Of a stretch of DNA of 64,000 nt, positions 42,722 through 45,542 are shown in pieces. Each line of letters opens with the position of its first letter. Position 1 is the stretch's first letter. The notes beneath the pieces are model-generated. The model worked only from the letters and a program-made list of their open reading frames with translations, did no database searches and was not told where the DNA came from. The DNA lies in the NCBI RefSeq assembly GCF_044647545.1, contig NZ_CP172818.1, one strand, 5' to 3'. The translations under genes and the position numbers were made by a program. This DNA comes from Escherichia coli. GTDB taxonomy: Bacteria; Pseudomonadota; Gammaproteobacteria; Enterobacterales; Enterobacteriaceae.

Positions 42722-42928
42722 GTAGATGCTCATTCCATCTCTTATGTTCGCCTTAGTGCCTCATAAACTCCGGAATGACGCAGAGCCGTTTACGGTGCTT
42801 ATCGTCCACTGACAGATGTCGCTTATGCCTCATCAGACACCATGGACACAACGTTGAGTGAAGCACCCACTTGTTGTCATACAGACCTGTTTTAACGCCT
42901 GCTCCGTAATAAGAGCAGGCGTTTTTTT
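42722..42928 (+). ncRNA. glmZ: small regulatory RNA GlmZ
   Basis: GTAGATGCTCATTCCATCTCTTATGTTCGCC...GCTCCGTAATAAGAGCAGGCGTTTTTTT matches my recollection of E. coli GlmZ (~207 nt), with sigma70-like -10 (CATAAT) upstream and intrinsic terminator. Confidence 0.85.
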
Positions 42929-43028
42929 ATGACCGGATAAAGAACTGGTTACGTCGCTCCTTCATCTTCTTTAACTCTTACAAAACCCAAAGAATTCTTC
43001 ACCTTTCATTTCCCTATTCTTTTTCTCC

Positions 43029-43126
<98 letters not shown>

Positions 43127-43131
43127 ATAGA

Positions 43132-44328
43132 TTACTGTGACGGGTTATTCTGTAAGGTCAGCATCAAACCGTCGCGGCGCATCGCTGCAGCTTCTTCTGG
43201 TTTGTGCAGTCTGTCCAGCGCGTCGGCAAGCCATGCGTAATCGTAGGCGTCCGGACGTTGTTTCAGCGCCGCGCGGAAGGCGAGCGATGCTTCCTGCCAT
43301 TCGCCGTGCTTCATCAGCGACTGACCCAGTGTGCTCCACAACAACGGGCGATCGCCCACGTTTTTGATCTGTTGGCGCAGCACTTTTTCCAGCTGTTCCG
43401 GGTTATTGGTTTTCAGACGCGGGATCGGCAGCAGCAGGCGATCGTCATACTGGCGTTTCAGGCCGTCGATGATAATTTGCTGGGCGGTGTCATGGTCATC
43501 ACACTCAATAAGGTGTTCCGCCATTGCCACCTGTAACGCCACCTGATGACGCGTTTTCCGGCTTTGGTTTTTCCACCAGTTACGCAAACCTTCGCTACCG
43601 TTATCGGCACGCGCCTGATCCATCAGGCCAATCCATGCCTGTTGTTCCAGCATTGCACGATGTTCTTCATCGCCAACGTGGGCTTTCGCCATTGATGGGA
43701 TGATATCCAGCAGCGAACTCCATGCACCAGTGCGGATATACGCCTGTTCCGCCAGACGTAATACTTCCGGATGGCGTGGCGTAACTTCCAGCAGCTTATC
43801 AACGCCGTGACGTGCTGCATGGTTTTCATTACGGGCCAGTTGCAGACGTACACGGGTGATTTCTACCGGAATTGTGCCGTTGCCGGCCAGCTCCGCTGCG
43901 CGTTCCAGATGTTGGTTGGCGCGTGCTTCATCACCGCGTTGTTGCGCGGCTTCGGCAGCCAGCAGATAGTTCACCACCGGTTGTTCAGCGTGATCGGCAT
44001 TTTTCGCCATCAGCTTTTCAACTTGCTGATAATCGCCTTCCGCTAGTTTCAGCAGCGCCTGTTCGGTCTGCTTACGGGCACGGCGACGCTTACGTCCGAC
44101 AAACCACCCACGGGTGTGTGCGCCTGTGCGGAAGATCCGCCGCAGTAGCCACTCAATGGCAAACAGCACTACCATCGCCAGAATCAAAATAATCGCCAGG
44201 CCAGTGACGCTGGTTTCGATATTGTAGTTGTCGGTCTGAATCAATACGTACCCCTGATGACCGGCAATCATCGGGCCAACCACGATCCCCGCAATCAGCA
44301 AAACAAAGAGCAATAACACTTTTAGCAT
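43132..44328 (-). CDS. hemY: HemY (TPR protein, heme biosynthesis-associated)
   Basis: 398-aa ORF MLKVLLLFVLLIAGIVVGPMIAGHQGYVLIQTDNYNIETS... Confidence 0.9.
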   Translation of the reverse strand: MLKVLLLFVLLIAGIVVGPMIAGHQGYVLIQTDNYNIETSVTGLAIILILAMVVLFAIEWLLRRIFRTGAHTRGWFVGRKRRRARKQTEQALLKLAEGDYQQVEKLMAKNADHAEQPVVNYLLAAEAAQQRGDEARANQHLERAAELAGNGTIPVEITRVRLQLARNENHAARHGVDKLLEVTPRHPEVLRLAEQAYIRTGAWSSLLDIIPSMAKAHVGDEEHRAMLEQQAWIGLMDQARADNGSEGLRNWWKNQSRKTRHQVALQVAMAEHLIECDDHDTAQQIIIDGLKRQYDDRLLLPIPRLKTNNPEQLEKVLRQQIKNVGDRPLLWSTLGQSLMKHGEWQEASLAFRAALKQRPDAYDYAWLADALDRLHKPEEAAAMRRDGLMLTLQNNPSQ

Positions 44329-44330
44329 GG

Positions 44331-45542
44331 TTATTCTCCTTGCGGCGCGGCTGCCGGAGTATCAGCTTGCGGTGCAGGTGCAGGTGCAGGTGCAGGTGCA
44401 GGTGCAGGTGCAGGTTTAGCTTCCGTTGTCCCTGCTGCCGGTTGTGCCAGCAGGTTACGCACGCGGGTCTGCATCAATTTTTCCAGCATCGCCTGGCTTT
44501 GCAGGGTTTCCGGGAGATCCATCGAGATATTTTGCTGGCTTAACTGGTCCACCTCGTCGAGGAACGCTTTGGTGGTGGCATCATCAGTATCGTAGTAAGC
44601 ACGTACCCAAGTGGAGACATTCTCCAGCGCCTGGCGATAAGTCTCTTCCTGATGACGCGGTACAGCTTGTGCAGCGACCAGCAGGCGAGAGCGAATATTT
44701 TCGCGCAGATAGATATCCTGATTTGGCGCTAACAGCGGTACGGCGGTGTCATCACGACGGCGAATCGTAATGAAGTTGTCCATAAAGTTCTGCCAGCTTT
44801 TTTGCAGATTGATACGCCATTCGCTGATGGAACTGGAAAGCTCTTCACCGTCGGAATCCATCGGCGAACCATCGCTGTCATTATCAGCCAGACGCAGGTT
44901 ATCTACCTGATTTGAAAGCTGATTAAGCTTAAGGATAATGCCGTCATAATCCACCTGCGATACCGCAGAAAGGCTGGCGATATCATCGGTAATTGCCCGG
45001 CGAACGGTAATCAGACTCGGGTCATTCATATCCGCCAGGCTGGCGTCTGCACTTTTCAGCAACGCTGCAGCGGTCGTGACGTCCTGATCGCTCCACAGCT
45101 TCCGTCCGGCGAGTTTCACCAGGAAATCAGCCTGAGCCAGCAGCCAGGTTTTAGCATCGCTGCCGGAAATAGTCGCGACCTTTTGTTGGACTTCATCCAG
45201 CTGTTTTGCCAGCGTTTCTTGCTGACGATTCGCCTGCTCAAGCTGTACAGCTTGTTGCTTGATAATGCCTTCCAGCTCAGCTTTTTGGCTCTCCTGGGCT
45301 TTTTGCAGTGCCGTCAGCTGATTAGCCAGGGCATCGCTGGTGGCAGTCTGATTGACGGCCTGTTGTTTACCCCAGCCATACAAACCGACGCCCGCCGCCA
45401 GAGCAATAGCGATAGCCACCGCGCTGAGAATCAATGCGGTATTGTTCTTACTCTTTTTTTCTGTTGCGACAGGTTGTGACGTGGTGTCCACGGCCTCCCT
45501 GGTCTCTTCAACCACGGCGGAGGTTTTTTCTTGTTCCGTCAT
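44331..45542 (-). CDS. hemX: HemX (uroporphyrinogen-III methyltransferase-like membrane protein)
   Basis: 403-aa [24 protein letters not shown]... ending in a (PA)n tract encoded by a hexanucleotide repeat. Confidence 0.9.
44371..44415. repeat. tandem hexanucleotide repeat (GGTGCA, ~7.5 units) in hemX 3' end
   Basis: GGTGCAGGTGCAGGTGCAGGTGCAGGTGCAGGTGCAGGTGCAGGT; encodes [17 protein letters not shown] on the minus strand. Confidence 0.9.

Follow-up and report, generated by a model that had tools for sequence, protein, structure and literature searches.

A hexanucleotide array near the 3′ end of Escherichia coli hemX is the MLVA locus CVN014 and encodes a Pro-Ala tract of variable length

In the window that we analysed, a stretch of E. 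coli DNA of 64 kb (64,000 nucleotides), a perfect run of a six-nucleotide unit lies close to the 3′ end of the hemX gene, and an earlier note on this DNA had suggested that the run was a slippage-prone site that might be expanded in this particular strain. This raises the questions of what the array is, whether its length sets the strain apart, and whether changes in its length are likely to matter to HemX or to the adjoining hemY gene. The array and the gene that holds it have the following features.

44331..45542, minus strand: hemX coding sequence, 403 aa, assigned from its open reading frame and a Pfam match; a Pro/Ala-rich low-complexity tail (aa ~366-403) holds the repeat
44371..44415, minus strand (hemX frame): tandem array, GGTGCA x7.5, the Tandem Repeats Finder consensus being given on the plus strand
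44373..44414, minus strand (hemX frame): (CCTGCA)7, encoding (Pro-Ala)7
44370..44372, minus strand (hemX frame): CCG proline codon directly after the array
44352..44357, minus strand: degenerate extra unit CCGGCA downstream of the array (the Pro-Ala of TPAAAPQGE)

Tandem Repeats Finder reported a perfect GGTGCA array at 44371..44415 (period 6, 7.5 copies, 100% matches, no indels, score 90), in agreement with the roughly 7.5 tandem copies that had been claimed earlier. Read in the hemX frame on the minus strand the sequence is AAA-(CCTGCA)7-CCG-CAA, encoding K-(Pro-Ala)7-Pro-Q; the tract had been described as (Pro-Ala)8, and it is indeed a Pro-Ala tract at the HemX C-terminus, but one of seven units followed by a proline rather than of eight, and the peptide string given in the earlier note itself holds seven. 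The placement within the last ~25 codons of hemX was likewise right as to the 3′ end but not as to the boundaries, as the tract (residues 377-391 of the 403-aa HemX) runs from 27 codons to 12 codons before the stop codon. A period-6 self-match run of at least 39 is expected by chance only ~2e-19 times in 64 kb of the same base composition and, a suspect poly-A run aside, the GGTGCA array is the sole pure multi-copy array in the 64-kb window.

The protein encoded around the array matched Pfam PF04375 convincingly (E=3.9e-108, 361 bits against a curated cut-off of 25.9) over aa 130-363, a region that does not include the Pro-Ala repeat. The gene under the array was annotated as hemX in the matching RefSeq genomes (among the matches listed), and the gene order in the window, i.e., aslA, glmZ, hemY, hemX, hemD, hemC and then cyaA on the opposite strand, is the expected one. 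The HemX family was the only Pfam match above the curated cut-off, the sole other match being a sub-threshold one to Tweety, and no methyltransferase catalytic domain was detected in HemX among these matches. The RefSeq (PGAP) product name for hemX in the E. coli genomes examined is 'uroporphyrinogen-III C-methyltransferase' and the MG1655 record has 'PF04375 family protein HemX'; the methyltransferase name seems to be left over from older annotation. HemX has been described as a Mic60-like protein of the inner membrane, a distant homologue of Mic60 that is without the mitofilin domain (preprint 10.1101/2022.06.14.496148), and in two-hybrid work it is a conserved partner of YhcB/ZapG (PMC8163987). 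As HemX has one hydrophobic helix near its N-terminus (~aa 34-59) with a Lys-rich segment before it, an N-in, C-out topology is predicted, which would place the tail in the periplasm. In an AlphaFold2 model built on a 12-sequence alignment (mean pLDDT only 45) the last helix ended at ~aa 365 and aa 366-403 were modelled as coil with a pLDDT of ~30; the tail is probably unstructured.

To place the copy number of the window among those of other strains, a 300-nt query spanning the array was searched against complete E. coli genomes, and matches were found in 5,425 of 5,426. Among the matches listed, from 5,425 genomes, the match length departed from 300 only by multiples of 6. Two systematic samples of the ranked match list, 98 genomes of the 5,425, gave the following length distribution (percentages of the 98 sampled genomes).

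2 units: 19%, a class inflated in this sample by laboratory K-12 derivatives
3 units: 6%
4 units: 5%
5 units: 13%
6 units: 14%
7 units (the allele of the window): 9%
8 units: 9%
9 units: 5%
10-11 units: 5%
Split alignments: 11%

Six of the genomes with split alignments were read directly and carried 10, 11, 12, 12, 13 and 18 units, and alleles of at least 10 units accounted for ~15% of the 98 sampled genomes; the 1-unit allele and a deletion allele were each found in a single genome. The 18 alleles read directly had 1, 2, 3, 4, 5, 6, 7, 8, 9, 10, 11, 12, 13 and 18 units, and in all 18 every unit was CCTGCA, head to tail and without interruption, and alleles differed in length only by whole units. 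Natural alleles range from 0 to 18 units, with the repeat pure, the steps whole and the frame intact. The zero-unit end of this range is represented by the natural isolate NCTC11023, the HemX of which (384 aa) is without the entire Pro-Ala tract and the PQADT that follows it; this deletion apparently joins the array to the downstream degenerate CCGGCA unit.

The HemX of K-12 MG1655 has 393 aa, the length given for K-12 in the earlier note, and 2 units, and the 403-aa protein of the window, with 7 units, differs from it by exactly a 10-aa insertion and 3 substitutions. The tract is consequently longer than in K-12, as had been suspected, and reference strains were not identical in repeat number when alleles were compared; the further idea of a strain-specific expansion did not survive this comparison, since 7 units is a common, mid-range allele (~9% of the 98 sampled genomes) and the window's allele is therefore no unusual expansion. 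We also grouped the alleles by their 310-nt flank haplotype, consisting of 215 nt upstream and 95 nt downstream of the array. Identical flank haplotypes were found with differing numbers of units, namely {7,10}, {1,2}, {13,18}, {3,10,12,12} and {5,6,8}, the haplotype of the window being common to FDAARGOS_497 (7 units) and EC200461 (10 units). As judged from these haplotypes, the length of the array changes faster than its flanks, and they point indirectly to a length mutation rate above the point-mutation rate.

Generic MLVA of E. coli reportedly goes back to Lindstedt et al. 2007 and comes in 7-locus and 10-locus (GECM-10) assays. A full-text literature search for hemX with MLVA or tandem repeat returned only an unrelated Salmonella SNP-table paper, and as it yielded no link between the gene and a typing locus, we made that link through primer sequences; the open-access papers cited for the scheme give the locus in question, CVN014, by its primers only. 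For CVN014, the generic MLVA scheme for E. coli by Lindstedt et al. uses the primers TCCCCGCAATCAGCAAMACAAAGA (forward) and GCAGCRGGGACAACGGAAGC (reverse) (table in PMC8143711). Each has a single exact match in the window, with 0 expected by chance.

44286..44309, plus strand: CVN014 forward primer, exact match, in the first codons of hemY
44419..44438, minus strand: CVN014 reverse primer, exact match, on the opposite side of the array

The in-silico CVN014 amplicon (44286..44438) is 153 bp long. The sizing formula for this locus, (PS-111)/6 (PMC8143711), gives (153-111)/6, i.e., allele 7, and 153 minus 7x6 returns the published 111-bp offset. The hexamer array at the 3′ end of hemX is the MLVA locus CVN014. 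In non-O157 STEC, CVN014 was the most variable locus, with 9 alleles spanning 4-15 units and a Nei index of 0.83 (PMC3519732); it was likewise called the most variable in another study (PMC3877011), and alleles 2-11 were reported for ST131 alone (PMC3407997), which again points indirectly to a length mutation rate exceeding that of point mutation. Because the array is a long-established typing marker, its recognition in the window is correct but ordinary: the locus and its variability were already known, the allele is unremarkable, and what is added here is the gene context of CVN014, a Pro-Ala tract at the HemX C-terminus.

Based on these comparisons, we consider it very probable that the 3′ end of hemX holds a hypermutable coding microsatellite that is driven by slippage and is close to neutral. 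Nascent and template strands would misalign by whole CCTGCA units during replication, each such event adding or removing one or more Pro-Ala dipeptides while keeping the frame; the in-frame slipped-strand polymorphism proposed earlier is supported in that genomes differ in length by whole units. The tract would lie within a low-complexity tail, after the last predicted helix and between the conserved body of HemX and a conserved 13-residue end, and length changes there would have little or no effect on function. Since HemX appears to tolerate widely differing tract lengths, alleles would be free to drift, the 7-unit allele of the window being one of them.

The surroundings of the tract were compared across genera. 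When HemX sequences of E. coli, Salmonella and several Citrobacter species were aligned, they were invariant up to NLLAQP368, after which came a Pro/Ala/Thr-rich segment that varied among the three genera in both length and sequence, and they closed with a conserved PQA[D/E]xPAxAPQGE. No Pro-Ala repeat was present among the Salmonella HemX sequences examined, and Citrobacter HemX had short (AP)2-4 runs at the repeat site, so far as these sequences go making the pure expanded hexamer array apparently an E. coli feature. At the same site the HemX of Citrobacter sedlakii reads APAPAAPAAPAAPQ in a 400-aa form and APAPAAPQ in a 394-aa form; this (PAA)n variation would represent an independent length polymorphism in a second genus. 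The last 13 HemX residues (44334..44372, minus strand) are conserved in Escherichia, Citrobacter and Salmonella and the segment preceding them is not. The codons for this 13-mer overlap the hemY ribosome-binding site and adjoin the hemY start, and the constraint on them could therefore concern either the protein or the translation of hemY. Other putative HemX length variants, either real or products of assembly error, carried large internal duplications, i.e., a 485-aa variant (ENA) with an internal 82-aa tandem repeat (HQEETYRQ...TTEAKPA), and a 413-aa HemX of Salmonella Berta with a 24-aa tandem repeat that starts in the transmembrane helix.

The conservation of the 13 post-tract residues across genera leaves room for a spacer function, in which the Pro-Ala tract would be a semi-rigid spacer whose length sets the reach of the 13-mer from the HemX body, tunes function and is under selection. 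The succession of a variable segment and a tail conserved in E. coli, Citrobacter and Salmonella would suit such a spacer, as would the extended, stiff character of alternating X-Pro sequences (as in the OmpA hinge, TonB and the E2p linkers) and the variable Pro/Ala-rich stretch at the same site in Citrobacter, including the C. sedlakii (PAA)n variant. The X-Pro composition of the tract fits a rigid linker, with only 12-13 residues beyond it and with the position of the last helix taken from a low-confidence model. However, natural isolates carry from 1 to 18 units, plus one complete deletion, very different tract lengths occur on identical haplotypes, the Salmonella sequences examined have no repeat, and the last hemX codons may owe their conservation to the overlapping ribosome-binding site and start region of hemY; selection on spacer length is accordingly an unlikely explanation in our view. 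The related proposal that the array acts as an evolvable 'tuning knob', the length of the stiff spacer altering how the 13-mer engages a partner, we regard as very unlikely; if it were true, CVN014 alleles would have envelope phenotypes instead of serving only as neutral markers for typing.

The position of the array just upstream of hemY could also suggest a regulatory role, for which the following features are relevant.

43132..44328, minus strand: hemY coding sequence, its ATG 2 nt past the hemX stop
44336..44341, minus strand: hemY ribosome-binding site AAGGAG, inside the final codons of hemX; it lies downstream of the repeat, which leaves it intact

The array is a hypermutable repeat within an operon; the hemX stop codon lies 38 nt downstream of it and the start of hemY, which is translationally coupled, 43 nt downstream. 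It might act as a switch for contingency or phase variation, or control the translation of hemY. Against this, a unit of 6 nt, being a multiple of 3, never shifts the reading frame, hemX was open in all 18 alleles read, and the hemY AAGGAG and ATG, both downstream of the array, were unchanged in 18 of 18; on/off switching by frameshift or by promoter spacing, as in phase-variable contingency loci, is not what the array provides. A scan of 44100-44700 identified no promoter-like or terminator-like site at the array, the single-strand DNA fold at the array was not exceptional (z = -1.2), and no RNA family matched there, the only Rfam match in the interval being GlmZ, elsewhere; on these grounds a regulatory or DNA-structural reading was rejected. 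Nothing that we found points to regulation or phase variation, and we give a switch or a hemY regulator next to no credence. The GlmZ match itself corresponds to a full-length sRNA (42722..42928, plus strand; Rfam RF00083, 218 bits) between aslA and hemY, as in K-12.

It might further be asked whether the 7-unit copy number is an error in the assembly of the source sequence, given that homopolymer stretches of junk-like appearance occur at two places in the window (42962-43097 and 57450-57650) and have no counterpart in any complete E. coli genome. Yet the 300 nt across the array are 100% identical to the independent complete genome FDAARGOS_497, for which reason an assembly artefact as the source of the array was rejected, and 7 units occur in ~9% of the sampled genomes, with the array of the window pure and in frame; we hold such an error to be highly improbable. 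With regard to the junk-like stretches, that at 42962..43097, between the glmZ terminator and the hemY stop, comprises ~136 nt with 56 consecutive A's (43030..43085), and it replaces a ~570-nt segment with a gene for a 196-aa hypothetical protein that is present in FDAARGOS_497 and 104 other complete genomes. The window's version was absent from all 5,426 of 5,426 complete genomes, and since its edges resemble a degraded, homopolymer-collapsed copy, it is probably a low-quality region or an assembly artefact. The stretch at 57450..57650 has long C/A/T/G homopolymers (e.g., 20 T's and 13 A's), which suggests a local mis-assembly in the source sequence.

A near-neutral, slippage-driven repeat would have little significance beyond bookkeeping: since 2007, CVN014 has served in the subtyping of E. 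coli, with ESBL producers, ST131 and non-O157 STEC among the groups studied. The addition is a view at the level of the gene, in which CVN014 is an in-frame (Pro-Ala)n tract of 1 to at least 18 units near the HemX C-terminus, between conserved parts; in the Salmonella and Citrobacter sequences examined the tract is missing or takes another form. This description could serve in-silico MLVA from genomes, and it warns against reading more than repeat noise into strain differences in HemX length. If the function of HemX is worked out, the natural length variants would offer a ready-made series of linker lengths.

Alternating X-Pro linkers are familiar from other envelope proteins, such as the Ala-Pro hinge of OmpA and the Glu-Pro/Lys-Pro region of TonB, and the Ala/Pro-rich linkers of the E2p lipoyl domains are a further extended and stiff example. 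The HemX tract resembles these in its alternating Pro dipeptides, which are expected to be extended, and in its position, with a folded part on one side and a conserved distal element on the other. It differs in that the OmpA, TonB and E2p linkers join two folded domains, whereas the distal element of HemX has only 13 residues, and in its 1-18-fold variation within a species, which is not known from this work for those linkers. Further parallels are in-frame coding VNTRs with a 6-bp unit that serve to type enterobacteria, such as STTR5 in Salmonella yohM and the O157 loci TR/Vhec/O157-n. These share with the hemX array a hexanucleotide unit, in-frame dipeptide changes, presumed slippage and use as epidemiological markers, but are in other genes, presumably so in the case of the O157 loci. 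With CVN014 itself the array of the window agrees in its primers, 6-bp unit, 111-bp offset and high polymorphism, and we found no difference between the two.
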